Shown here piece by piece: positions 3,771-47,727 of a DNA stretch of 64,000 bases. A program made the position numbers and the translations under genes. Source of the stretch: a virus; the IMG/VR virus record IMGVR_UViG_3300017963_000208, positions 3,601 to 67,600 of that record; one strand, 5' to 3'. The number at the start of each line of letters is the position of its first letter. The stretch's first letter is position 1. The notes under the pieces are model-generated. The model saw only the letters and a list, made by a program, of their open reading frames with translations. It searched no databases and had not been told where the DNA came from.

Positions 3771-3996
3771 GAATTGTATCCTTTTTATGTTTCAGAGTGG
3801 TAATAATATCTAATCCTGTTATTTCTCCCGGAAGCATTTTAATAGGGCTTGTCCAATGTTGCTTCTCTGGCAAAAACACACTGACCCTGTAAAATACTGT
3901 GTACTCACCGTGTTCTACCCCAGTAATATAGCCACTGAAGGTGTCACCGTACTTCACTATCACAAAATCCCCTTGTTTATATTCAGATTTAGTCAT
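3760..3996 (-). CDS. SH3/KOW-like small protein, conserved C-terminal motif family
   Basis: EYKQGDFV; C-terminal DIITTLKHKK. Confidence 0.75.
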   Translation of the reverse strand: MTKSEYKQGDFVIVKYGDTFSGYITGVEHGEYTVFYRVSVFLPEKQHWTSPIKMLPGEITGLDIITTLKHKKDTIREK

Positions 3997-4151
3997 GGTT
4001 AGTTGTGCCTTTCATATCTTGTACCACCCTTTTTCCACGATTTAGGCCCTTTTTAGTCCTGTGTTTTTCATTGCTTTCTCCGCCGGCCATATATGACCAT
4101 ACGTGACCATATATGGTAGGTATGCCACTATATATGACATGACACTATACC

Positions 4152-4225
4152 TGCAAGCGCCATGCCAACCTAAGCCGGCTTGCATAAAGCGTGCCAAAGC
4201 TAGAGCTCTTGCAAGGTCCGTGCCA
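4152..4225 (-). promoter_or_regulatory. Three tandem sigma54-type (-24/-12) boxes at 29-bp intervals
   Basis: Minus strand TGGCATGGCGCTTGCA (4152-4167), TGGCACGCTTTATGCA (4181-4196), TGGCACGGACCTTGCA (4210-4225); all GG-N10-GC. Confidence 0.75.
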
Positions 4226-4312
4226 AGGTCAACCTAATGGCCTAACACTAAACCGCTAGGCCTAACCCTACCCTAACACGGTAACACGTACCCTTGCCAC
4301 TCCCTATAAATA

Positions 4313-4364
4313 ATTATATAGGGGAATTTTACCCCTTGCAATTGTCAATAAATAGTGTTATGAT
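4313..4364. promoter_or_regulatory. Divergent sigma70-type promoter pair sharing a palindromic -35
   Basis: TTGCAA at 4336-4341; plus-strand TATGAT at 4359-4364 (17-bp spacer, TGn extension); minus-strand TATAAT at 4318-4313 (17-bp spacer). Confidence 0.65.
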
Positions 4365-4403
4365 CAAAAGACACAAGCAAAAGACTAATGAAAGGGGTAA
4401 GTT

Positions 4404-5282
4404 ATGAGCCAGAAAGTTTTTGAAATCGTAACCAATAGGATAATTGACCAATTAGAACAAGGGGTTATACCATGGCGCAAGCCTTGGAAAAATTCCCGCC
4501 CACCGTGTAACCTGCTTTCTGGCAAGCCTTACAGGGGCATTAATGCCCTTGTATGCTTTCTAACTACCTTTAAAGAGGGGTTTAGTTCACCATTTTGGTT
4601 GACGTTTAAACAAGCCAAGCGGTTAGGCGGTAGTGTCAAGAAAGGCGAAAAGGGCACTCCTATTGTATTCTGGAAGTGGATCAACGGCACTGATAAGGAT
4701 ACAGGCAGGGAAAAAACCTTTCCTTGTGTCCGATATTATACCGCTTTTAACCTGGATCAATGCGAAAACATACCAGAAAGCAAAATTCCACAAGACAAAG
4801 GCCTTGATTTCAAACCGATTGAACAGGCGGAAAAACTTGTTTCAGAATGGTTAGGCAAGCCTGAAATCAGGCATAGCGGCAATATGGCCTGTTATTCCCC
4901 CGCGCTAGATTTCATTAACCTACCGGACCCTAACCGCTTTAAATCGGTTGAGGGGTATTATTCCACCTTGTTTCACGAATTGACGCATAGCACTGGCCAC
5001 CCTAACCGCTTAGGTAGGTTTGAACAAAACGCGGTTAATGGTTTTGGCTCTGATAGCTATAGCAAAGAGGAGCTGATAGCAGAAATTGGCGCGGCTCTGT
5101 TATGTATGCAATGCGGAATTGATAGCGCGGACCTACACCAAAACCAAGCGGCTTACGTGCAAAACTGGTTAAGGGCTCTTAAAGATGATAGGCGCTTGCT
5201 AGTCAATGCGGGACAAGCGGCACAAAAAGCGGTTGACCTTATCAACGGCACCAAACATAAGAAAGGGCCTAGCAATGAATAA
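4404..5282 (+). CDS. ardC: ArdC-like ssDNA-binding antirestriction protein (DUF1738 plus zincin-like domain)
   Basis: GVIPWRKPW, YRGIN, WLTFKQA..LGGSVKKGEKG, YYSTLFHELTHSTGH..RL.R, YSKEEL.AE.GAA.LC motifs. Confidence 0.9.
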   Translation: MSQKVFEIVTNRIIDQLEQGVIPWRKPWKNSRPPCNLLSGKPYRGINALVCFLTTFKEGFSSPFWLTFKQAKRLGGSVKKGEKGTPIVFWKWINGTDKDTGREKTFPCVRYYTAFNLDQCENIPESKIPQDKGLDFKPIEQAEKLVSEWLGKPEIRHSGNMACYSPALDFINLPDPNRFKSVEGYYSTLFHELTHSTGHPNRLGRFEQNAVNGFGSDSYSKEELIAEIGAALLCMQCGIDSADLHQNQAAYVQNWLRALKDDRRLLVNAGQAAQKAVDLINGTKHKKGPSNE

Positions 5283-5466
5283 AGATAGCTGGATCGAGGC
5301 AAGGGAAAATCTACTAATGGAAAGGGTTAACTCTTTAGAGGCAAAGCTAAACCGTTGTCTTGAACAATGGGAAATTGACGCTATAGAGGATAGCCTAACC
5401 GAAAACGATATAGTTAACGAGTATAGCGCCATGGTTGATTATACTTTTGAACTATTGAGGGGGTAA
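5275..5466 (+). CDS. Hypothetical protein (likely start MNKDSW)
   Basis: ORF track 5206-5466; ATG at 5275 overlaps the ardC end with a GGG-rich RBS. Confidence 0.6.
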   Translation: MNKDSWIEARENLLMERVNSLEAKLNRCLEQWEIDAIEDSLTENDIVNEYSAMVDYTFELLRG

Positions 5467-5468
5467 CA

Positions 5469-6200
5469 ATGATTAAACTAAGCCACAATAACAAAAAGGT
5501 TAGTAAGTTAGACGCGGTTAGTTTTGGTATTCAGGCCTTTGCTATCCCCTTTGATATCCTGAAAATGTTTATCAACCGCTTGCCTATTGATACCGAGGCA
5601 AAGCTAGGGGCCTTTGAAAACGTCCACCTTGAGACAAAGCAAAAGACCATTGACAATCAAACCCATTGCCTAACTTGCCCTAGTGCGGGCGCTTGCGGCT
5701 CTGTATGCTATGCCTTGCAAGGGTCCTATAGGTGGAATGTAGTTAAAGCGGCTAGGGCCTGGAATACCGCTTGCACTTTTCTTGATAACTTTGCTTTTCA
5801 TATGACTAAGGCATTGACAAAGGTTAAAAGGCCTATTGTCCGGATACATGATAGCGGCGATTTTTATTCGCTCCGCTACTTCCAGCAATGGGTTAAGGTT
5901 GCAAAGGCCTTGCCGCAAAAGACGTTCTATGCCTATACCAAAAGCCTAATATTTGTCGATTTCAATGCTTTGCCTGATAACTTCAAACTGGTACAATCCC
6001 AAGGGGGAAAACATGACCACTTGTTAAACCCCCTAAAGCCTATAGCGCGTATATTTGAAAGCAGGGAGGCCCTAGAAAAAGCTGGTTTCACCTATGGCAA
6101 TGAAAATGATCTACCAGCAATTCAGGGGGTAAAGCGTATAGGCCTAGTGTACCACGGCACCAAAAAACTAACAGACCAACAAAGGCAATATTTCAAATAG
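5469..6200 (+). CDS. Gp88-like phage protein (Cys cluster, radical-SAM-like motifs)
   Basis: TCPSAGACGSVCYALQG, IVRIHDSGDFYS, FYAYTKS. Confidence 0.75.
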   Translation: MIKLSHNNKKVSKLDAVSFGIQAFAIPFDILKMFINRLPIDTEAKLGAFENVHLETKQKTIDNQTHCLTCPSAGACGSVCYALQGSYRWNVVKAARAWNTACTFLDNFAFHMTKALTKVKRPIVRIHDSGDFYSLRYFQQWVKVAKALPQKTFYAYTKSLIFVDFNALPDNFKLVQSQGGKHDHLLNPLKPIARIFESREALEKAGFTYGNENDLPAIQGVKRIGLVYHGTKKLTDQQRQYFK

Positions 6201-6211
6201 GAGTTAACCCC

Positions 6212-6493
6212 ATGAAAAACAAAAAACGCGGACCATATATTGACAACAAAGCAGAGCGGCAAGCTTTCTACCGTGACGCGCAATGGAATAAAAACTATAG
6301 AGAGCAAAACCGTTGCAAGGCTAGTGATAACCAACCTACCGCTTCACCTATGCAAAAACCGCCTATGCCATGTAGTCAATGCGGCGGTAAAGTAGTCAAG
6401 GGCCTGTTTAGGTACGCTTGCCCTACTTGCCACCCTTTCCACTTCCAAAAATGCGGTATATGCGGTGCAAAGCGCCTTTGGTGTTGCTGCTAG
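6212..6493 (+). CDS. Cys-rich Zn-finger hypothetical protein
   Basis: CSQCG, CPTC, CGICG...WCCC; RBS AGGAG. Confidence 0.6.
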   Translation: MKNKKRGPYIDNKAERQAFYRDAQWNKNYREQNRCKASDNQPTASPMQKPPMPCSQCGGKVVKGLFRYACPTCHPFHFQKCGICGAKRLWCCC

Positions 6494-6523
6494 GCCTTTA
6501 CCCCTTTAGCCTAGTTAGCAGCT

Positions 6524-6562
6524 AAGGCCCCTAGTTATTGCTTGGCTAGGGGCCTTTCTTTA
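6524..6562 (+). terminator. Rho-independent terminator of the ardC operon
   Basis: AAGGCCCCTAG/CTAGGGGCCTT 11-bp stem followed by TCTTTA. Confidence 0.75.
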
Positions 6563-6756
6563 TGATTTCAACCACTTAAATGTTGCTCAGATTGCTTTCT
6601 AAGGGCCTTAAATGGTCTTAGGTATGCTAGGGTACCAGGGGCCTTGAAAAAATCGCTTACAAGCCAAAATAGAGAGCCATAGGACTAGCGGCAAGGCAAA
6701 GGAAAGGGGGTTAAGCATTGCACCTAACCCCCTAGTGTAAAGCAAAGCGGCTAAGG

Positions 6757-6858
6757 CTAATAACCAGCCTTGACTATACGCTTTGCCCTAGTCAAATTGT
6801 TGCGGCGTAGCCTGATAACCACTAGCCAATGTTTCAACCTATCAATCAACCTTTGCAT
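6757..6858 (-). CDS. Very small basic protein (33 aa)
   Basis: MQRLIDRLKHWLVVIRLRRNNLTRAKRIVKAGY*; GGGGG RBS just after the upstream stop. Confidence 0.4.
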   Translation of the reverse strand: MQRLIDRLKHWLVVIRLRRNNLTRAKRIVKAGY

Positions 6859-6867
6859 GGTTTCCCC

Positions 6868-7029
6868 CTAGTCCTGCCTTACGATAACCCTACGCTTGCC
6901 ATTGATAGTCACGATATCAAGGCGCTTGCTAGGCTTGTTTGACTGGTTATCGCTTGCCTTGTCTTTGTCTTGTTTCCTGATAACCTTCGCTTTGTCGCTG
7001 GTTATGATTATTAGGCCTTGTTTGCTCAT
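6868..7029 (-). CDS. Small basic protein (53 aa)
   Basis: MSKQGLIIITSDKAKVIRK...RVIVRQD*; AAGGGG RBS; directly downstream of a strong sigma70 promoter. Confidence 0.55.
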   Translation of the reverse strand: MSKQGLIIITSDKAKVIRKQDKDKASDNQSNKPSKRLDIVTINGKRRVIVRQD

Positions 7030-7061
7030 TGTCTAACCCCTTTGTTTGTCGGTATACTTCG

Positions 7062-7089
7062 ATCATACCAGAAAAAGGGAAAATGTCAA
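7062..7089 (-). promoter_or_regulatory. sigma70-type promoter
   Basis: Minus strand TTGACA-16 bp-TATGAT with TGn extension. Confidence 0.65.
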
Positions 7090-7098
7090 TAAAAACTA

Positions 7099-7128
7099 TT
7101 TAACTATGTATAAGTAGCCACCTATAAT
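7099..7128 (+). promoter_or_regulatory. Phage-specific promoter motif copy 1
   Basis: TTTAACTATGTATAAGTA then TATAAT 6 bp later; upstream of 7143. Confidence 0.7.
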
Positions 7129-7142
7129 AGGGAGTAAAAAAC

Positions 7143-7631
7143 ATGAGTGAAAATAAACTAGAGAAAATCAGGCAACATATTGAAAACACAGTGGGCTTGC
7201 ATAAATTTCTTGATAATTTCTTAGCCAATTTCAAGCGGGAATGTAAAAGAGAAGAAAGAGAGCGCAATAAGTGGCTGAAAAAACAAAGCAGCAAGCCGCA
7301 AAAGCCTTGGACTGGAAAGGCCTTTCAAGCTAGGTTTACCTATGCCAAAAAACAAGCTAGGGAGAGAAGCATTAAATGGACCTTAACAGATAAACAGTAT
7401 TATCAATTGGTTGAAAAGGCTTTATGTTCCTATTGCGGTTACCCCTTAGCAGGTAAAGGAGTGGAATTAGATCGAATAAATAGCAAAGGCATATATGAAA
7501 CAAACAACGTAACCCCCTGTTGTGGTCTATGTAACATGACTAAGGCGCGGGATAAATTTAGTTATAGAGAGATGTTAGACCATATAGGTCCATCCATATC
7601 GAAAGTCAAATACCTACGTGATAAAAAATAG
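7143..7631 (+). CDS. HNH-like (CxxC..DR..N..CxxCN) endonuclease with N-terminal coiled coil
   Basis: CSYCG...ELDRINSKGIYETNNVTPCCGLCNMTK. Confidence 0.75.
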   Translation: MSENKLEKIRQHIENTVGLHKFLDNFLANFKRECKREERERNKWLKKQSSKPQKPWTGKAFQARFTYAKKQARERSIKWTLTDKQYYQLVEKALCSYCGYPLAGKGVELDRINSKGIYETNNVTPCCGLCNMTKARDKFSYREMLDHIGPSISKVKYLRDKK

Positions 7632-7994
7632 TCAAATGAACATTTTGCCCTATTTCCATTAATCTAATAATATCCACAACATACCTACAATACAAAATAC
7701 CCGTGTAATCTACCTACTTAGTGAATATTAAAGGGAAATTTAGTTTTCCCTTTCGAGAGCTCGTCTATGGCATAAAATGCGTTAACTTTTGCCGGCAACG
7801 GCCGGCCAATTAAGGGGCTTTATTCCAGGCGGGACAAGCAAAGGCCTAGCAGGTAGATCAAACCCCCCTTACAAGCCAAATAAGAGCCCTATAGGTATAC
7901 ATATAGAGCCCTATACAGGCCTAGTTAGTTATTGGGTTACATACAGATAAGGTTAGGTGGTTAGTTATTGGGGTAGTAGGGTGGAAATACGGGT

Positions 7995-8485
7995 TGCAAG
8001 ACCCATGCCAACTCTCTATATATCTCAGAATAATTATACCCCTTACCCTATATATACCCCTATATAGGTATATATTGACTACCCTATATGACACTATATG
8101 GCTATCAGTGCTATTAGCCCGCCCCTGCAAGACCTATACCACCATATACGTAACTATAGTTACTAATATATACCCATATATTAATAAATCAGTGTATTTA
8201 TAACTATTGATTATTATGTGATTAAATGCTGGTACTCCACCGATAGAGTAAGCAAGATATATACCAACATAATGGCATAGATATTGAATGGCTATGCAAC
8301 CTTTGTGCCAGAGCTCGCGGGCCTAGATAGAGAACTATAGTTACCCAATGCAATTAATATACCAATGTAGTTATATAGAATGGTACATATATTGCAATAA
8401 ATTAAAATGACCATATATGGATATACATGTATATAGGGGTATGGTAATGTAAAGGGGTACGGTGCTATATGCAAAGACCGTGCCA
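7995..8485. promoter_or_regulatory. Second cluster of sigma54-type boxes
   Basis: Minus: 7995-8010, 8126-8141, 8251-8266, 8295-8310, 8349-8364, 8470-8485; plus: 8381-8396 (and imperfect 8273-8288); TGG(C/T)A(C/T)-N5-TTGC(A/T). Confidence 0.65.
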
Positions 8486-8713
8486 TGGCTCCATCCGGTA
8501 AATCACACACAAACCTAATTTAACCAACTGAACAAATATTCATACTCTATATGGGTCATAAAATAACCCAATTAAGGAATCTATTTGGGTCATTGAGAGA
8601 AGTACCAAAAACCGAGGGGAACAAATATTCAAACCCAGTAAAAATAATCATGAAGAAAAACCCAATGATTTCAAGACTAGGTTAAAACTAGAGTGCTTTT
8701 CGTATAATTATTA

Positions 8714-8743
8714 TTTAACTATGTATAAGTACGCTACTATAAG
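8714..8743 (+). promoter_or_regulatory. Phage-specific promoter motif copy 2
   Basis: TTTAACTATGTATAAGTA then TATAAG 6 bp later; upstream of 8764. Confidence 0.7.
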
Positions 8744-8763
8744 TAGAGGGGGAAAATAAGAAC

Positions 8764-9051
8764 ATGAGAGACTTAATAGATAAAGCTGACCATATATTGA
8801 GAAATAGTCATAGATTTAACGTGGGAGATAAGGTTAAATTTAGAATATCAGATGAAGCTGGAGCTAGAATAGTAAGGGGCAAAGTGCGGCGTGTAGAGAT
8901 AAATTATTTGTGGTCTGGTGTCTATGAAATAGAATTAGATAACCCCTGGGATAAGATATACAAGGACGAGGCTCCTAGAAATACTATGATGATAAGAGAG
9001 GACGTACTCACATTGGATACTTTAGACTATATGAGAAAGAATAAGAAATGA
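8764..9051 (+). CDS. SH3/KOW-like small protein, conserved C-terminal motif family
   Basis: RFNVGDKV; C-terminal DTLDYMRKNKK. Confidence 0.8.
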   Translation: MRDLIDKADHILRNSHRFNVGDKVKFRISDEAGARIVRGKVRRVEINYLWSGVYEIELDNPWDKIYKDEAPRNTMMIREDVLTLDTLDYMRKNKK

Positions 9052-20628: not shown

Positions 20629-21996
20629 ATGGCACAAGTTGTTACTCTTTCCGAAGCTGCAAAACTTTCGAACAACCTTCTGGTCGAGGGCATTATCGAG
20701 GATATCGTAACGGTTGATGACTGGTATCAGTACCTTCCGTTCGTGGTGTTTGAAGGCTTAGCCTACACTTTCACCCGTGAAGCGACCCTCGCTAAAGCCG
20801 ATTTTGCGGCTCCTGGCACTTCCCTTGCTGCTACTAAGTTTCAAGGTGGTGCAACGTTCCAAAATGTGAACGTGAACCTAGCGGCCATCATTGGCGACAT
20901 CATTCTCGATGGTCAAATCGAGGATCAACTCAGCGACCATAATGATCAGCTTCAGGTGCAAATTTCTTCCAAAGCGAAGCAGATTGCACGTATCTATATG
21001 AACGCGATCATCAACGGTCGTAGAATTCCTGGTGGCGCTCTGACTCAGGCCAATAGTGGTCCTATCGGCATCGAAGCCAAATTCGACGGCATGAAGAGAA
21101 TTCTTGAAGCCGAAGCTGGCAACGTCGATGACGTCAACCATCCTTTCTATAACGCCGGTGCGTCTACTCAGACCTTGGCTCTCGTTGAAGATGATGCTTC
21201 GTCTTCGCGTGTTGGTCGTCCAGGTCGTGTGTTCTCACTTGAAGATTTGGACAATCTGATTGACCGTGTTACGGTTGGTCGTCCTGACTTCTTGATGATG
21301 AACGCTCGTGAGATTCGGACGCTGCGTGTCCTCTTAAGGAACACCGGTGGTGGTACGGATGCGTATCAAATCCAACAGCAGGGTCTTGGTAACATGAAGC
21401 CTATGCTTTATTATCAAGATATTCCTATTTTCCGGAATGACTTCATTTCGAAAGAAGACGGTGTCAACCTGGTTGATACTGGTGCTGTTGCGGCAGTTGG
21501 TGCTACGAGCATTACTACGGCTGAAGACTACAGTGTTGCCGTTCCCCAGGCTCTCCTGGATGGTATCGCTGCTGGTACGGCTGAAGTCCGTGTTCGTGAC
21601 GACGACGCTATCCTTCGTCGCTGGAAAGTTACGAATGCCACTGGAGCTAACCCTTCAGTGCTAACCGTGACGGCGACTGGGCAGTTCCTAGATGTCGAGA
21701 ACAACCGCGTGGAAAGCGTGTTGGCTCCTGACGACGCAGCCTTGAGTCTCGTGGCTGAAACCTATGAGATTTTTGAGAGAGCTGACGGCTCTACCGTTTA
21801 CGCTGGTAAATGGGGTGAGTACGAAGGCGTCGTGGGCTTTACATCCGCTCAAAACGCTGGTCTTAAGCTTGAGTATGTCGGTCCTCGTGAAGATGAGAAC
21901 GCCTATCAGTATCGCCTTAAATGGTACTGTGGTTTCGACCTTTACAACCGTCTCGCTCTTGCTAGGGCTAAAGACGTTCTGCCGCTGGGTGCTTAA
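20629..21996 (+). CDS. Major capsid protein (HK97 fold) with an inserted domain
   Basis: LSEAAKL..GIIE.I...LPF...EG.AY.F.RE, Q.Q...KAK.IAR, YQDIP.F.NDFI, YRLKWYCG; strongly biased high-expression codon usage. Confidence 0.9.
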   Translation: MAQVVTLSEAAKLSNNLLVEGIIEDIVTVDDWYQYLPFVVFEGLAYTFTREATLAKADFAAPGTSLAATKFQGGATFQNVNVNLAAIIGDIILDGQIEDQLSDHNDQLQVQISSKAKQIARIYMNAIINGRRIPGGALTQANSGPIGIEAKFDGMKRILEAEAGNVDDVNHPFYNAGASTQTLALVEDDASSSRVGRPGRVFSLEDLDNLIDRVTVGRPDFLMMNAREIRTLRVLLRNTGGGTDAYQIQQQGLGNMKPMLYYQDIPIFRNDFISKEDGVNLVDTGAVAAVGATSITTAEDYSVAVPQALLDGIAAGTAEVRVRDDDAILRRWKVTNATGANPSVLTVTATGQFLDVENNRVESVLAPDDAALSLVAETYEIFERADGSTVYAGKWGEYEGVVGFTSAQNAGLKLEYVGPREDENAYQYRLKWYCGFDLYNRLALARAKDVLPLGA

Positions 21997-38300: not shown

Positions 38301-38479
38301 TACCTACAGATTACATAGATCATCGATCTGATCTGTTAATGGATTACGGGTATTTAGGCGAAGCCTACAAATGGGGTCCGGACCAGGTTGATGGCCTTCC
38401 GTGGAGTTTTCGGAAGGAATTAATAGAAATTGATAAGACAGCAAGACAGGAAATAGCAAAGGATGGCAGGCGCTCATAG
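37560..38479 (+). CDS. Predicted -1 frameshift extension product of the tail chaperone
   Basis: T TTT TTC at 38267-38273; -1 frame open to TAG at 38477-38479, encoding ...DLLMDYGYLGEAYKWGPDQVDGLPWSFRKELIE... Confidence 0.7.
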
Positions 38480-40604
38480 TGTAAATATAGTCATTAGTGC
38501 TCACAACAGAGCTTCTAAACCTATAAAACAGGTTCGAAAGGACTTGAGTAGGTTCAGAACTGAGGTTGTACGCTTCAACCGAAATCTGTTTACGGCCAGT
38601 GCAATCATAGCCACTTTTGCCGCTGGATTCAGAAGGGCTTTTAACCTAGCGGGGGTGGGAGCCCAGTTTGAGTTTGTTCGGCAGCAATTCTTAAAGACTT
38701 TTGGGCCTCAGGACTATCTCCCTACTCTAAAGAAGGCCGCAAGAGGCACCATGGATTCTCTAACCATGATGCAATTGGCTGTTAAAAACTATGCTCGTGG
38801 GCTAAGTAAGTATGAAACAGAAAAGATATTTACTTTGTCCGTGGGAGCTGCAAAGATTTTGGGCACCAGTACTGCCAATGCTGCAAAACAAATGTCTTCT
38901 GCCTTTACCAACTTGAGTGTAAAAGGACTTCAAACATTTCTAGTTGCCTTAAACACCAACAACCAATTCTCCAACATGAACGTCCTTATCCAGAAGCTGA
39001 CTAAAGGACTTAACGCTGCAGGTCGGATGACCGAAAACTTTCGTAGGGTAGCTCTAGCCGAGCTATCTAAGGCTCTAATGCAGTTTGTGGATACAGGGGA
39101 TAACGCTCTCCAAGTATTTATGGCTGCCAAATCTAGTTTTCAAGATTTGCGTCAGGTCATAGGATCATTCCTAGGAAGAGCTATGGCTCCCCTGGCCAAA
39201 CAAGTAGCCATGTTGAACTTTGGTATCTTTGCCAAATTACTACCTATTTTAGATGGTGCAACCGACCACATGAAGAGTTTGCGAACAGGAGTTGTTGCTC
39301 TCGCACAGTCTATCGGCGGGTTGTTAACAATGGTTGGAGGTTTAGTAGGTGGTTGGTCTCTTTTACGTCTACTGTCTGCTACCTTGGGATTTAACTTAGC
39401 CCCATTAATCGGAATTATGGGCGTTCTAGGTGGAGCTTTTTGGGCTGCCAAAGATAAATCTAAAGGTTGGATGGAAACCCTGGCAGATATTGGGGCTGAA
39501 ATGAAGTTTTATTTCCAAGCCTTTGCCAGCTATAAAGACGGAATTTCTACCTTCTCCAGAGACGTAGCCATGAGAATTGGTGGAATGAGTGATAAGACCC
39601 AGGAAAGAATTTTAATGATTGCTAGAGCCTTAGTACACGTCAAACAAGCTCTAATGGGATTTTTTGATGGGGTAAAAGCGGTCTTTGGCCTTGTCGGGGC
39701 AATTGCGGCCAAGGTTGGAAGCGTTATAACAGGTATCGGTAAAGTCTTTGGCATGCATAAGCAGTTTTCCATAGAAACTGGGGCAGTAGTAAAGACAGGT
39801 GGTAAGCTTCTAGGGGTCGGAGCGGCTGCAGGTATTTTGGGAGGTATGGCTTTAGGCGGAGTAAACAAAGTCGCTAGATTGTTTGGCAGAGAAGGATTTG
39901 GAATAAAAGGAGGAAAGTTCTTTGACCGAATCTTTGGAAAGCGTGGAACAAGTGCTACCAAGCCTCTATATGTATTTGATGTTTCCGCAGCTCCGAAGGG
40001 CGTATTAGGTAAGTTTTTTGGAAAAGGTGCGGCAGCCGCAGGTGGAGCCGGGAGTCAGATGAGTTTATTCGGAGGAGCAGCGGCTGGCGGAATAATGGGC
40101 AAAATGGCTGCCTTCATGATGACTAGTGTGGGAGCTGCTTCTTGGACAGCTATTGCTGGAGTGGTTATTGCGGGTCTTTTGGCTGGTGGAATAATTGGAA
40201 TTCTGATAGATCACGTAATGTCCAAAATCACTGGAGAAAAGTCCTACTGGATGACAGGAGATGTCGGTCCTACTGGCAGTAGAGTCTCTTTGGAGGGAAT
40301 GACTCCTGAGCAAAGAAAAAGAATGCATGCTGGTATAGGCCAGGGAGAGGTAAGTATTGCTGGTCGAAAGGTAGACACCTCTGAACTTACTGAACAAACC
40401 AAGGAAAGATTTAGAAATCTAGTTTCTCAGGGAGGTATGGTTTCTACAGCTCAGTTGGAGCGGATATTGTCAGATATGAAGCTGACAAACGAGGAATTAC
40501 TAGAAGTCAATAAGATGATGGAGAGGGACTTGAGTAAAGAACCTTTTCAGTCTGTTAATGACAAACCCAATCAGTGGTCTAATTTTATGGGGCCTAAGAC
40601 TTAA
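38463..40604 (+). CDS. Tape measure protein
   Basis: 713 aa, A/G-rich helical with hydrophobic segments, after the chaperone. Confidence 0.85.
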   Translation: MAGAHSVNIVISAHNRASKPIKQVRKDLSRFRTEVVRFNRNLFTASAIIATFAAGFRRAFNLAGVGAQFEFVRQQFLKTFGPQDYLPTLKKAARGTMDSLTMMQLAVKNYARGLSKYETEKIFTLSVGAAKILGTSTANAAKQMSSAFTNLSVKGLQTFLVALNTNNQFSNMNVLIQKLTKGLNAAGRMTENFRRVALAELSKALMQFVDTGDNALQVFMAAKSSFQDLRQVIGSFLGRAMAPLAKQVAMLNFGIFAKLLPILDGATDHMKSLRTGVVALAQSIGGLLTMVGGLVGGWSLLRLLSATLGFNLAPLIGIMGVLGGAFWAAKDKSKGWMETLADIGAEMKFYFQAFASYKDGISTFSRDVAMRIGGMSDKTQERILMIARALVHVKQALMGFFDGVKAVFGLVGAIAAKVGSVITGIGKVFGMHKQFSIETGAVVKTGGKLLGVGAAAGILGGMALGGVNKVARLFGREGFGIKGGKFFDRIFGKRGTSATKPLYVFDVSAAPKGVLGKFFGKGAAAAGGAGSQMSLFGGAAAGGIMGKMAAFMMTSVGAASWTAIAGVVIAGLLAGGIIGILIDHVMSKITGEKSYWMTGDVGPTGSRVSLEGMTPEQRKRMHAGIGQGEVSIAGRKVDTSELTEQTKERFRNLVSQGGMVSTAQLERILSDMKLTNEELLEVNKMMERDLSKEPFQSVNDKPNQWSNFMGPKT

Positions 40605-40606
40605 TT

Positions 40607-41329
40607 ATGCGAAAATTTACCTCATACACTTCTAAGCCTTCCCTTCTAAAAGCCTTCCTAGTTCCAGTAGAGGCTAAGAATAATAGGATTCCTGTCAATC
40701 GTCAGGACCAAAATATCCTCGAATTGGGACAGTTTTATCTTAATCCAACTACTTGGAATGACAGTAAAGAAACCAAGTGGGTAAAACATATGGTTCCAGG
40801 TATGAGTGACCCTCATCAACAGTGGGTTGCTGGTGGTCCCAGAACTATTACGTTTGAGGCTCTAGTGACTCGGGATGTATCATCTAGTGAATCCAAGAAC
40901 AAAAAAGATAAAACTTCAGTAATTAATACCAGTAGAAAAAACTCAGTAGTTGCGGGTATTGCTTCAGCAGTACAGCAGATAGAAGGACTTACATCCTCAG
41001 AGGCTATCTTACAGCAGGGCGAGCGAGAAGGTTCCTTTTTGAACCTCGATATTACTGAAAAACTTAATTATTATCGTAGTTTACTTTATCCTAATGTGGT
41101 TTCTTCTGCGAATAGAGTTTCTAGTCCACCCAATCTGGTAAGACTTATAGTGGGAAGTACTTTGGGACAGAGAACCCAAACAGCCCGATTTGTAGTAGAC
41201 AAAATAGAAATTAGAGTAACCAAACAGTTTCCGGACCTTAGACCCATGGAAGCTGTGGTTGTGTTTACTCTCACCGAGTTTGTTGATAGACCTTTATCTT
41301 CTAAAAATGATATTCTTACGGACGTATAA
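40607..41329 (+). CDS. Tube-initiator / baseplate hub-proximal protein (CIS tube-like)
   Basis: FYLNPT.W, Q.V.GG.RTI.FE, PP..VRLI.G patterns; after tape measure. Confidence 0.7.
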   Translation: MRKFTSYTSKPSLLKAFLVPVEAKNNRIPVNRQDQNILELGQFYLNPTTWNDSKETKWVKHMVPGMSDPHQQWVAGGPRTITFEALVTRDVSSSESKNKKDKTSVINTSRKNSVVAGIASAVQQIEGLTSSEAILQQGEREGSFLNLDITEKLNYYRSLLYPNVVSSANRVSSPPNLVRLIVGSTLGQRTQTARFVVDKIEIRVTKQFPDLRPMEAVVVFTLTEFVDRPLSSKNDILTDV

Positions 41330-44841: not shown

Positions 44842-47727
44842 ATGGCTAATTCTTCAATAGATTATATTGCCAAGGACTTTGATTCCATTGTTGACGCTCT
44901 GATCACTTTTGCTACAGTCAACTTTGGAGAGGACTCGGCAGGAAACCGACAGTGGACCAACTTCAATGAGGACGATTTTAGTCGTACCTGGTTGGAAATA
45001 GTGGCCTACGTCGGAGACCTAATTTTCTATTATCTAGATGTTCAAGCTACTCAAAGTAACCTAGAAACGGCCACCATTCGTTCGGCAGTTCTAGATATAG
45101 CTAAACAATTCGGATATATTGTTCCCACAGCTTCTTCGGCTTCTGGTTTAGCTACTTTTACTTTGAATACTAGCGATACCATTCCCGTGGGATTTAGAGT
45201 TTCTGCAGACAATGGGGCAGAGTTTTTCACTACTAGTAGCTCTCCGCAGGCTGGGTCTACTACGTTAAGTGTGATTCTCCCCGTTATCCAAGGTGAGCAG
45301 AGGTCTGAGACCTTTACAGCTAAGGGTGTTCAAAATGAGGAAGTAGTGCTTGGTTTCACTCCTCTCGTTATTGATACCACTAACTCGGTATCCACTCTCA
45401 GGTCTCCAAGGATCACTGTTAATGGCAACTCCTATGATCTAGTAAATACCTTTATTGACAGTTTACCCACAGATAGGCATTATAGAGTTGTTACTAATGA
45501 GGACGGACAAACAGTAATTCGTTTTGGAGATGGTATTTTTGGAGAGGCTTTGGCTCCCAACGATACTATCGTAGTGAGCTACCGCACAGGTGGGGGCACG
45601 GTAGGAAATATTCCAGCAAGTACTCTTAATACATTAGTAGACGAAGCCACCTTTATTGATTCTGTTATAAATACAGAGTCTTTCAGTGGTGGAGCGGATG
45701 ACCCAACTATTGATAGGTTAAGAGAACTGATTCCGGCTTCTCTTCAAACTTTAGAGAGAGCTGTGGCCGTAGACGATTATGGTGACATCATTGTTGCCAA
45801 TTTTAGTAACGTTCTAAAGGCTGCTGCAGAAGAGAATATAACGGACAGCGGAGTAGACGTGGATATCTATGTGGTACCGTCTGGAACGACTATCACTCCG
45901 ATTACCACGAATTTATCTCTTTTTAACAGTATAACTGATTACATAGATAAACGGAAGACAGTCACAACCACCTTTAGACTGTTGGATGCGAATGGTGTGG
46001 ACGTTGACCTTAAGTTAACGGCCTTTCTCCTAGAGGGAGCTTCACGGACTGAGGTAGCTCAGGATATCACCACCGCGTTTACGACCTTCTTTGACCTCTC
46101 TGAAGGAGATACTGACGGAGCAGGTACGAAGTTTGGTCAACGAGTACTGCTTAATGACCTCTACGCTCTACTGGATGATATTGAGGGCATTGAGCGGTTT
46201 GAAATCACTAAGTTTAACTATATCCCAAGAATAGAACCCACTACAGCGTCTGGTACTAATTATTTGCAAAGTGAGGTTGAGGTTCTGACTCCCTCTGAAC
46301 CGTCTGAATGGTTGGTGGCCTCTGAATACAATGCTGCTTCCCCGGACTACAACCCCTTTACCGTATATAAGAGACTTACCGGAACTGTTTCTAACCTGAG
46401 TGCGGACAGTTTGGCTGATGATGATTTGAATTTGGCCGTGGTAGAAAGTACAACTTCTGCAGTAAATACAGAAGGTTCTAACAACGTAGTTTTTGATAAC
46501 AGTCGCACCTTCGTAGTAGATGAGTTTGTTGGAGGAGGTTTTCTCCTAGTAGACTCTTCCAACAATATTTGGAATATCACTGATAATGATGCTCATTCTA
46601 TCATATTGGGAGCGAACGCTATTAACAATACTGTGGTTTCGGACGTATCTTCAGGCAGTTACAAAATCGTTCGAAGCATGATAGGCCAGAACCTAATCTT
46701 TCGTAACTTAGTGTTTTCTAATATAGATTTTAATACACACAATACCCTATATCGAATAGGCTCCAGTTTTGACCTTGTGGGAACCATCGGAGATGAGTTC
46801 AAAATCTCTATTCCCCAAACAAATATTGGAAACTTTGGGGCTCCTGTAACAATTACTGCTTTCACGTCAAGTACTCCCACAGCGGGGACAGGAAGAGTGA
46901 CCTTAGCGGGTAACCCGGACTTGTCATCTGTAACTGTTGGACCCTCTAGCAACTATCTATTAATTGATAGTAATTCCAATGTATTTGAAGTAATTGCAGT
47001 CGATGATATCAATAAAACTGTTGATATTATTCATCAGGCTGGGGTTACTACGGCTCCTACAGTGTCTGGAGGAAAGCCTGCTTCTTTGGCTCCCAGGTAT
47101 TATAGTGATGATTCCGAAGTGACCTTTGTCATAGGACAGGGAAATAGAGAGACTGGTATAGGTTTTCAGGCACGGGGCAATATTCAGACAGTTGACCCGG
47201 CTAATATTAGTGACGCTGAAACATTTGTATTGAACGACGGCTCTAACCCTGCGGTTACCTTTGAGTTCGAAAAGACCGGTGGAGTCGGTGGAGGCAACGT
47301 AGCGGTAGACATATCTTCGGCTACGGATGCAGAGGATGTAAGAGATATTATAGTTTCTGCCGTTAATGGAGCACCTCTATTAGCTATTACTGCTACTCCT
47401 GGTACAGCCACTAATATGGTGATTTTACAAAATGATGCTGTAGGAAGCCAAGGCAATCAGACCATAATTAACGGTGTTGCCGATGCAGGGTTTATTACTA
47501 CGGGCATGACTGGAGGTTTGGATTCGGGTAGTTTGCCTACTCCGGTAATTCCAGCTTCTGGGAAAACTTCTACAGACTTAGGTCTGGACACAGACGGCAA
47601 TGTTATTGATATTTTCGTCTTTAGAGTGTCCGGATATGTTGACGATATTATAAATCTGAGAAAAAGCGAAATTCCTGAATTTTCAGAAGATAATTTAGAA
47701 TTAGACCTTAGAGGGGGCGTAGCCTAA
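44842..47727 (+). CDS. Baseplate wedge J / gp6-like protein with extra domains
   Basis: DY..KDF..I, LETA..RSAV...AK..GY, FGDG..G, YR.GGG..GN, GGAD, RAV..DDY. Confidence 0.9.
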   Translation: MANSSIDYIAKDFDSIVDALITFATVNFGEDSAGNRQWTNFNEDDFSRTWLEIVAYVGDLIFYYLDVQATQSNLETATIRSAVLDIAKQFGYIVPTASSASGLATFTLNTSDTIPVGFRVSADNGAEFFTTSSSPQAGSTTLSVILPVIQGEQRSETFTAKGVQNEEVVLGFTPLVIDTTNSVSTLRSPRITVNGNSYDLVNTFIDSLPTDRHYRVVTNEDGQTVIRFGDGIFGEALAPNDTIVVSYRTGGGTVGNIPASTLNTLVDEATFIDSVINTESFSGGADDPTIDRLRELIPASLQTLERAVAVDDYGDIIVANFSNVLKAAAEENITDSGVDVDIYVVPSGTTITPITTNLSLFNSITDYIDKRKTVTTTFRLLDANGVDVDLKLTAFLLEGASRTEVAQDITTAFTTFFDLSEGDTDGAGTKFGQRVLLNDLYALLDDIEGIERFEITKFNYIPRIEPTTASGTNYLQSEVEVLTPSEPSEWLVASEYNAASPDYNPFTVYKRLTGTVSNLSADSLADDDLNLAVVESTTSAVNTEGSNNVVFDNSRTFVVDEFVGGGFLLVDSSNNIWNITDNDAHSIILGANAINNTVVSDVSSGSYKIVRSMIGQNLIFRNLVFSNIDFNTHNTLYRIGSSFDLVGTIGDEFKISIPQTNIGNFGAPVTITAFTSSTPTAGTGRVTLAGNPDLSSVTVGPSSNYLLIDSNSNVFEVIAVDDINKTVDIIHQAGVTTAPTVSGGKPASLAPRYYSDDSEVTFVIGQGNRETGIGFQARGNIQTVDPANISDAETFVLNDGSNPAVTFEFEKTGGVGGGNVAVDISSATDAEDVRDIIVSAVNGAPLLAITATPGTATNMVILQNDAVGSQGNQTIINGVADAGFITTGMTGGLDSGSLPTPVIPASGKTSTDLGLDTDGNVIDIFVFRVSGYVDDIINLRKSEIPEFSEDNLELDLRGGVA

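Follow-up and report, generated by a model that had tools for sequence, protein, structure and literature searches.

The locus analyzed here raises the question of whether a crowd of sequences resembling the −24/−12 sites of host sigma-54 RNA polymerase, lying in gene-free DNA of a phage, consists of genuine sites, and of what such sites would be for. As generally understood, every sigma-54 promoter depends on a dedicated ATPase activator, and we know of essentially one phage, infecting Pseudomonas, for which the use of such promoters is documented. The window, i.e., the whole stretch of DNA under analysis, is 64 kb long and corresponds to bases 3601–67600 of a 107,565-bp IMG/VR phage record. 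This record is a single contig of 42% GC, 94% complete and classed as linear, and sequence of the window is found in marine sediment and seawater metagenomes; no RNA run is listed for it.

The Genome and Its Control Region

The large terminase (TerL) of this phage shares only about 29% identity with T5-like terminases. The search of isolate phages with this protein gave only relatives below 42% identity, and no cultured member of either the window's lineage or the small-phage family described below; at the DNA level, no isolate phage has a similarity match to positions 7600–8800. The far arm of the genome, on the minus strand, codes for a bacterial-type RecA, PhoH, DNA polymerase A, a DnaB-like helicase, and a class II ribonucleotide reductase. 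The RecA points to no particular host, being 52–54% identical to the RecAs of five phyla alike. The window is devoid of tRNA genes.

Two gene arms diverge from positions 4000–8760, a control region that includes two clusters of boxes, cluster 1 and cluster 2 (Table 1). Cluster 2 is in a spacer (GC content 0.365) with six small ORFs, none of which matches a PHROG family. These ORFs are not conserved in L001, a relative of the phage (see below), and the longest of them carries a 1-bp indel with respect to it. Hence, we regard the spacer as gene-free. Logan contigs from two runs cover 7165–8728 with zero differences from the window, and those of a third run cover 7918–8481. Just to the right of 4065, directly left of cluster 1, the contigs of all three metagenome runs depart from the window sequence, and we take this as the sign of a co-occurring strain whose cluster 1 differs in sequence.

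Table 1. Features of the control region, with positions counted from the first base of the window
Feature	Position	Strand	Remarks
Sister cluster 1	4152..4225	−	Boxes at 4152, 4181 (ATGC at −12), and 4210, in 29-bp steps
53-aa gene	6868..7029	−	Conserved, very basic; 67% identical in L001; no family match
HNH/endonuclease-VII-like gene	7143..7631	+	Absent from the otherwise collinear L001
Gene-free spacer	7632..8763		1132 bp, from the HNH gene to the first rightward-arm gene; holds cluster 2
Sigma-54-type box TGGCATGGGTCTTGCA	7995..8010	−	Canonical; L001 differs at two spacer bases only
Box TGGTATAGGTCTTGCA	8126..8141	−	TGGT variant; L001 reads TGGCAT
AT-rich core between boxes	8141..8250		Among the best-conserved parts of the spacer (0.80–0.93 identity per 30 columns)
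Box TGGTATATATCTTGCT	8251..8266	−	TGGT variant; identical in L001
Imperfect box TGGCATAGATATTGAA	8273..8288	+	GA replaces the −12 GC; first base differs in L001
Box TGGCACAAAGGTTGCA	8295..8310	−	Canonical; L001 keeps GG and GC, with CTGC at −12
Box TGGTATATTAATTGCA	8349..8364	−	TGGT variant; back-to-back with 8381+
Box TGGTACATATATTGCA	8381..8396	+	Sole rightward box; first rightward gene starts 368 bp further on; kept in L001
Box TGGCACGGTCTTTGCA	8470..8485	−	Canonical
Sigma-70-type promoter	8715..8743	+	Heads the rightward arm (TTAACT, 17 bp, TATAAG); sequence read directly

Boxes of Cluster 2 and Their Enrichment

Exact boxes were defined by the pattern TGGYAY-N5-TTGCW and searched on both strands of the window and of the whole genome. 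The scan confirms the seven-box cluster that an earlier note on this DNA had reported, with the exact boxes 7995−, 8126−, 8251−, 8295−, 8349−, 8381+, and 8470−. When one mismatch is allowed, the imperfect box that the note had placed at 8273+ is recovered as well, together with 4181− in cluster 1. Because the box at 8273+ lacks the −12 GC and has its first base changed in L001, it is probably no true site. Of the two back-to-back pairs described earlier, 8349−/8381+ is real and conserved, whereas 8251−/8273+ has an imperfect and unconserved plus-strand member.

The window contains 10 exact matches, against 0.19 expected from whole-window dinucleotide shuffles. The note had considered that the excess might vanish once the AT/TA-rich composition of the surroundings was taken as background. 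When the spacer itself (7632–8763) was shuffled 5000 times with its dinucleotides preserved, the mean number of boxes was 0.006 and the maximum was 1, against seven observed; the enrichment thus survives the local background, and the proposed refutation fails. In the rest of the 107,565-bp genome, exact boxes are found only at 4152−, 4210−, and 20814+. The last one (20814–20829) falls within a gene of 455 aa and is missing from all three close relatives that cover the locus, which marks it as a chance match.

In all boxes fitting TGGYAY-N5-TTGCW, exactly 10 bp separate the GG from the GC doublet. The fourth base of TGGC is C in three of the seven boxes of cluster 2 and T in the other four; T is found at this position in 7–16% of the boxes of phage arrays (see below) and in none of 29 sigma-54 sites of Salmonella.

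Conservation in Relatives

The IMG/VR terminase search gave three genomes (L001–L003) with a TerL 90% identical to that of the window, and among these L001 alone reaches the box region. Its DNA is 80–88% identical to that of the window, and six exact boxes persist in it, with order and strands unchanged. In the pairwise alignment of the two sequences, where the eight sigma-54-defining bases of each box were counted as core, changes affect 1 of 56 core bases versus 9 of 56 spacer and degenerate positions (Fisher p = 0.016), and 115 of the 463 non-box columns of 7950–8520 (25%; p = 1e-5). By this comparison, the core bases of the boxes are under purifying selection.

A more distant relative, the 113-kb contig L168 found in the metagenome scan, has a TerL 60% identical to the window's. 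Its arms diverge from a single 740-bp spacer, without an inserted block, about 5 kb upstream of TerL. This spacer contains two exact boxes (5091+ and 5287+) and two with one mismatch, ATGC at −12 (4829− and 5215−); no other exact box is present in 21 kb. The boxes are thus kept at the same position although blastn finds no DNA similarity between L168 and the window at the spacer. Like the window with its box 8381+, L168 also has plus-strand boxes upstream of the rightward arm.

Cluster 1 holds two exact boxes and a near-exact one. Including the latter (4181−), 9 of the 10 boxes of the window's two clusters are on the minus strand, and the two spacers, about 1.5 kb combined, contain nine strict boxes. 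The clusters are separated by a 3.8-kb block with ArdC-like, GP88-like, and HNH genes, which is missing at the same place in the distant relative. The GP88-like gene is on the plus strand between the clusters in the window and in the leftward arm in L168. Because L168 has a single spacer without the block and places the GP88-like gene elsewhere, clusters 1 and 2 appear to be the halves of one ancestral array, parted by the rearranged or inserted block.

Neighboring Genes and Other Features of the Spacers

Each transcription unit around the clusters already has a strong sigma-70-type promoter. A 16-mer of the one heading the rightward arm recurs at 7101 and 11442, and the 53-aa gene has its own, near-consensus promoter at 7089–7062 and a terminator at 6733–6705. 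This is the first real gene for leftward transcripts of cluster 2, at 966 bp in the window and at 434 bp in L001. The HNH gene is found between cluster 2 and the 53-aa gene and, since it is missing from L001, it looks like a recent mobile insertion. Transcripts starting leftward in cluster 2 would thus cross 350 bp of noncoding DNA, then, from its 3′ end, the HNH gene in antisense, and then the 53-aa gene, before reaching the terminator. The remark that most boxes have no credible gene nearby is borne out, as what lies leftward is noncoding DNA followed by a gene on the opposite strand. The nearest same-strand gene is at 156 bp for cluster 1 (with its ATG at 3996), at 966 bp for cluster 2, and at 368 bp for 8381+. 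Cluster 2 adjoins the rightward arm, with most of its boxes facing the other way.

The spacers contain other conspicuous words. A perfect 14-bp palindrome, GTAACTATAGTTAC, is present at 8150, within the AT-rich and highly conserved 110-bp core of Table 1, with a near copy at 8333. The spacers 3997–4403 and 7632–8763 share enriched CCCTATA/TATAGGG (8 versus 0.1 expected), CCATATA(TGG), AGAGCTC, and GACACTATA. The shared words and the palindrome are probably sites of other regulators. The GACACTATA words resemble SP6-type promoters, but no T7-type RNA polymerase (PF00940) is found, an absence that is weakly shown because control genomes are also blank.

Box Arrays in Other Phages

IMG/VR was scanned for pairs of same-strand boxes 10–40 bp apart. 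There are at least 120 matches, versus the handful expected by chance under a uniform-base estimate, and 80 of these loci were fetched. At least four boxes within 400 bp are found in 35 of the 80 loci, among the matches listed. One family of small phages, with a TerL 25–36% identical to that of the window, accounts for 43 loci; the other 37 have no protein family common to three or more of them. In unrelated large phages, there are up to 22 boxes in 6.5 kb among the matches listed (e.g., L091, 303–6445).

In the small uncultured phages (within L043–L122; e.g., L059, 8236–8447, and L045, 18–256), 3–10 boxes are found between divergent sigma-70 promoters. As both arms of these phages have strong sigma-70-type promoters, the array is placed between the two. 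In 37 loci of the family, the array is at a median of 275 bp upstream of a conserved operon coding for a small AT-hook protein, an M15 peptidase, TerL, and the portal protein. Of the 170 boxes of these loci, 132 are directed away from the terminase operon and the remaining 38 face it; all boxes point away in 18 of the 37 loci, and in none do all of them face the operon. An early arm of small genes starts within ~70–290 bp on the side to which the boxes point; next come genes for a pyrimidine-dimer-glycosylase-like protein and for DNA polymerase A, which have homologs in the window's leftward arm. Tandem boxes mostly follow each other at 26–28 bp and alternating ones at 21 bp. Some arrays form palindromes of 37 bp, and many are near contig ends. 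Directly beside the array there is often a G-rich block (GGGGCGGGGGAGGGG-like). A search for an enhancer-like conserved site between the array and the terminase operon of the family gave only strong sigma-70-type promoters and the G-rich block. The window repeats the plan of the small phages, with cluster 1 near the leftward gene, cluster 2 beside the rightward arm, and a sigma-70-type promoter for each unit.

Resemblance to Bacterial Sigma-54 Sites

The positions left free by the pattern allow a comparison with proven sites. The base following TGGCAY is G in 67–68%, A in 26–28%, and C or T in 5% of the boxes, alike in the 43 related and the 37 unrelated loci, and the base preceding TGG is T in 56–66% of the boxes of phage arrays. 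In the nine boxes of the window, the base after TGGCAY is G in 44% and A in 56%, never C or T. Among 29 ChIP-defined intergenic sigma-54 sites of Salmonella Typhimurium, it is G in 19, A in 10, and no other base (counted from the table in PMC3844500); 10 of these 29 pass the strict pattern. Bacterial sites thus have the GG/GC spacing of TGGCAC-N5-TTGC and the same preferences at free positions as the phage boxes. The finding of one grammar in unrelated phages and in proven bacterial sites argues for a conserved reader from the host rather than a lineage-specific phage protein. Overall, the sigma-54-type identity of the boxes is well supported: they are enriched, their GG/GC core is selectively conserved, and their free positions match those of real sigma-54 sites.

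The window also differs from bacterial sigma-54 promoters in several respects. These are normally single or paired, whereas up to seven sites are crowded here into 491 bp of phage noncoding DNA, four of them being TGGT boxes, with neither an enhancer-binding protein gene nor a recognizable activator site. Sites without an obvious downstream gene do occur in bacteria, as 41 of 70 sigma-54 sites of Salmonella are intragenic (PMC3844500).

The same tandem-box scan of bacterial genomes gave, among the matches listed, 58 of 80 fetched loci with just two boxes. Several of the denser loci are satellite or coding repeats (e.g., in Paenibacillus and Dehalococcoidia contigs), and a few contigs of metagenome-assembled genomes (MAGs) seem to carry real arrays. 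Among five array-bearing bacterial MAGs checked, four encode the sigma-54 DNA-binding domain. The locus L253 (6482–6812), from a MAG labelled as an uncultured actinomycete, has four near-perfect, divergent boxes in a contig of 61% GC, and the domain was not found in its MAG. Either the contig was binned wrongly or belongs to a phage, or the locus is a counter-example.

A Candidate Array of Host Sigma-54 Promoters

We consider directional, activator-dependent sigma-54 promoters to be the most likely reading of the boxes, one for which belief and doubt are about evenly balanced. Cluster 2 would be a set of −24/−12 sites for the host sigma-54 holoenzyme in the control region of the diverging arms, adding to the sigma-70-type promoters of each unit. 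Six boxes would fire leftward, through the inserted HNH gene in antisense and on towards the 53-aa gene, and one would fire rightward, towards the structural arm. We infer sigma-54 binding, transcription starts at the boxes, and opening of the complexes by an activator, which could come from the host or be an unrecognized phage protein. The strong strand bias favors a directional, promoter-like function over a purely orientation-free role.

Several observations speak against promoters. Most boxes of cluster 2 have no gene at a normal promoter distance, the boxes of other phages are 21–28 bp apart or face to face, which is too close for independent promoters, strong sigma-70-type promoters already exist, and four of the seven boxes are TGGT variants. 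The enhancer-binding ATPase domain (PF00158) has no match in the phage genome. Of 50 other viral records with arrays, including 13 that are at least 90% complete, none has a match scoring above the family cut-off. No upstream activator site is recognized at the window's boxes, and no phage-encoded sigma-54 DNA-binding domain (PF04552) is found in the genome.

Other Roles for the Boxes

The missing activator would also fit another role, in which the boxes bind sigma-54 or its holoenzyme without firing, as a sink for a scarce host factor (the sponge of the earlier note) or as a barrier or docking platform between the arms. In the sink version, stable closed complexes would switch off sigma-54-dependent host responses as copies of phage DNA build up. 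Such a role would also account for the scarcity of target genes near cluster 2 and would make no demand on units already served by sigma-70-type promoters. The steps of 26–28 bp or 21/26 bp are ~2.5 helical turns, which suits dense occupancy on opposite faces of the DNA, and nine strict boxes in ~1.5 kb may be set beside the mere 10 intergenic sites passing the pattern in the whole Salmonella genome. Yet a sink or barrier needs no orientation, and the bias is strong both in the window (9 of 10) and in the related family (132:38). Moreover, the weaker TGGT variant in four of seven boxes is odd for a high-affinity sink, and ten sites per genome would titrate the factor only after replication. 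We thus find binding without firing rather unlikely.

It is quite improbable that the likeness to sigma-54 sites is coincidental and that a different DNA-binding protein, of phage or host, reads the boxes, for instance in packaging or in the initiation of replication. Such a reader would fit the position of 43 of the 80 fetched arrays at ~275 bp from the gene of a small AT-hook protein and the terminase operon, the many arrays near contig ends, and the 37-bp palindromic arrays, which are typical of dimeric binders. In two Vibrio phages (VPT02 and VPG01, see below), two boxes flank three DnaA-box-like words, and the enriched words and the 14-bp palindrome of the window's spacers imply that other factors certainly bind here. 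Against this, the same 16-bp grammar is found in 37 loci without a common family, and a lineage-specific protein would not stay constant across them. The proximity to the terminase operon in the small phages is not seen in the window, where the array is 5.1 kb upstream of TerL and the boxes are ~4.5 kb from the gene just upstream of it. The tract has no DnaA boxes, iterons, or tandem repeats, and contigs cross the cluster at flat depth.

These last results bear on the nonpromoter roles proposed in the earlier note. An opening of the origin finds no DnaA boxes, iterons, or tandem repeats to act on, although the AT-rich conserved core with its palindrome does lie between two boxes, and an iteron-type origin was rejected since only the 16-bp box grammar is shared between copies, the spacers being variable. 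Genome entry near a physical end finds no support either, as the depth is flat and homologs of T5 A1/A2 are lacking: tblastn of T5 dmp, A1, and A2 against the genome gave no match. The contigs, which alone cannot map an end, give no sign of one at the cluster. The production of small RNAs fares no better. Rfam at E up to 1 gives no match in the tract, with three weak and unrelated matches all outside of it; the folding of five predicted leftward RNAs shows no gain over shuffled sequences (z-scores from −1.75 to +0.35); and the single terminator-like hairpin (7912–7883) is not conserved in L001. The arrangement of box, structured RNA, and terminator of sigma-54-dependent small RNA genes (of the Qrr and GlmY/GlmZ type) is not found, and this candidate was also rejected.

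Finally, the boxes could be a by-product of chance or composition, or an old repeat in decay, without present function. The spacer is indeed AT/TA-rich and four boxes are TA-rich TGGTAT variants, but none of the 5000 local shuffles gave more than one box, the core bases are far better conserved than their own spacers, and L168 keeps a cluster at the same position. This very improbable explanation is close to refuted.

Comparison with Known Phage Systems

The promoter reading, which we prefer, has partial parallels in other phages. In T7-type phages, the tandem sites A1, A2, and A3 for host polymerase, ~50–130 bp apart, are at the head of the early arm and point in the same direction. These early promoters are of the sigma-70 type, fire without an activator, and help to pull the genome in, whereas sigma-54 complexes stay closed without an ATPase. 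The window thus resembles A1–A3 in having several same-direction sites for host polymerase in tandem, and differs from them in sigma-54 replacing sigma-70.

The tract is also reminiscent of the "injection stop signal" tract of T5 and of the tract of VPT02 and VPG01, which are gene-free, 1–1.8 kb long, rich in repeats, next to early genes, and found with a T5-type large terminase. However, T5 itself has no box cluster, and the window has no A1, A2, dmp, tract DnaA boxes, or sign of a terminal repeat. A first-step-transfer or injection-stop region of the T5 type was rejected for the lack of A1/A2/dmp and of any sign of a terminal repeat.

VPT02 and VPG01, T5-like phages whose host is Vibrio parahaemolyticus, were reached by BLAST of one array against isolate phages. 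Their genomes of ~120 kb have four and three exact boxes, respectively, all within the first 3.4 kb (MN954399.1, 762–3345; MW398869.1, 2494–2926). These are in and beside a 1.35-kb gene-free tract, where two boxes converge on three DnaA-box-like TGTGGATAA words.

The closest functional parallel is Pseudomonas phage YuA, which uses sigma-54-type host promoters and is not known to encode an activator. The use of its −24/−12 promoters is supported by their activity in a promoter trap and by the mapping of a start site (Ceyssens et al. 2008, as cited in PMC10914365). The record of YuA (NC_010116) annotates three −24/−12 promoters dispersed in the structural region (38392–38570, 40888–41035, and 47152–47312), and none of them contains a match to TGGYAY-N5-TTGCW even with one mismatch. 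In terms of sequence, this only studied phage case is a much weaker fit to the pattern than the boxes of the window, which differ from those of YuA by forming dense, near-consensus clusters in an early control region.

Implications

Many unrelated phage lineages carry oriented arrays of apparent host sigma-54 sites without the ATPase. It is possible, if on balance doubtful, that this reflects a general strategy, consisting either of a new route of opening, by an unrecognized phage activator or a stress-switched host activator, or of the capture of the sigma-54 pool. The phage of the window would then be a large-genome case in which the array is split in two. In phages without an activator, the arrays would mean either that phages time their early expression by tapping host signalling (nitrogen status, membrane stress, motility, or quorum regulators), or that they manipulate the sigma-54 pool. 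Either possibility, if true, would be a new layer of phage–host takeover. The question is directly testable, as two cultured phages of V. parahaemolyticus have the feature, and the RpoN of this host is among those that have been studied (PMC9817140). The boxes would also make early control regions easy to recognize in the sequences of metagenomic phages, and the use or capture of host sigma-54 by phages may be much more common than one would judge from the single case studied.
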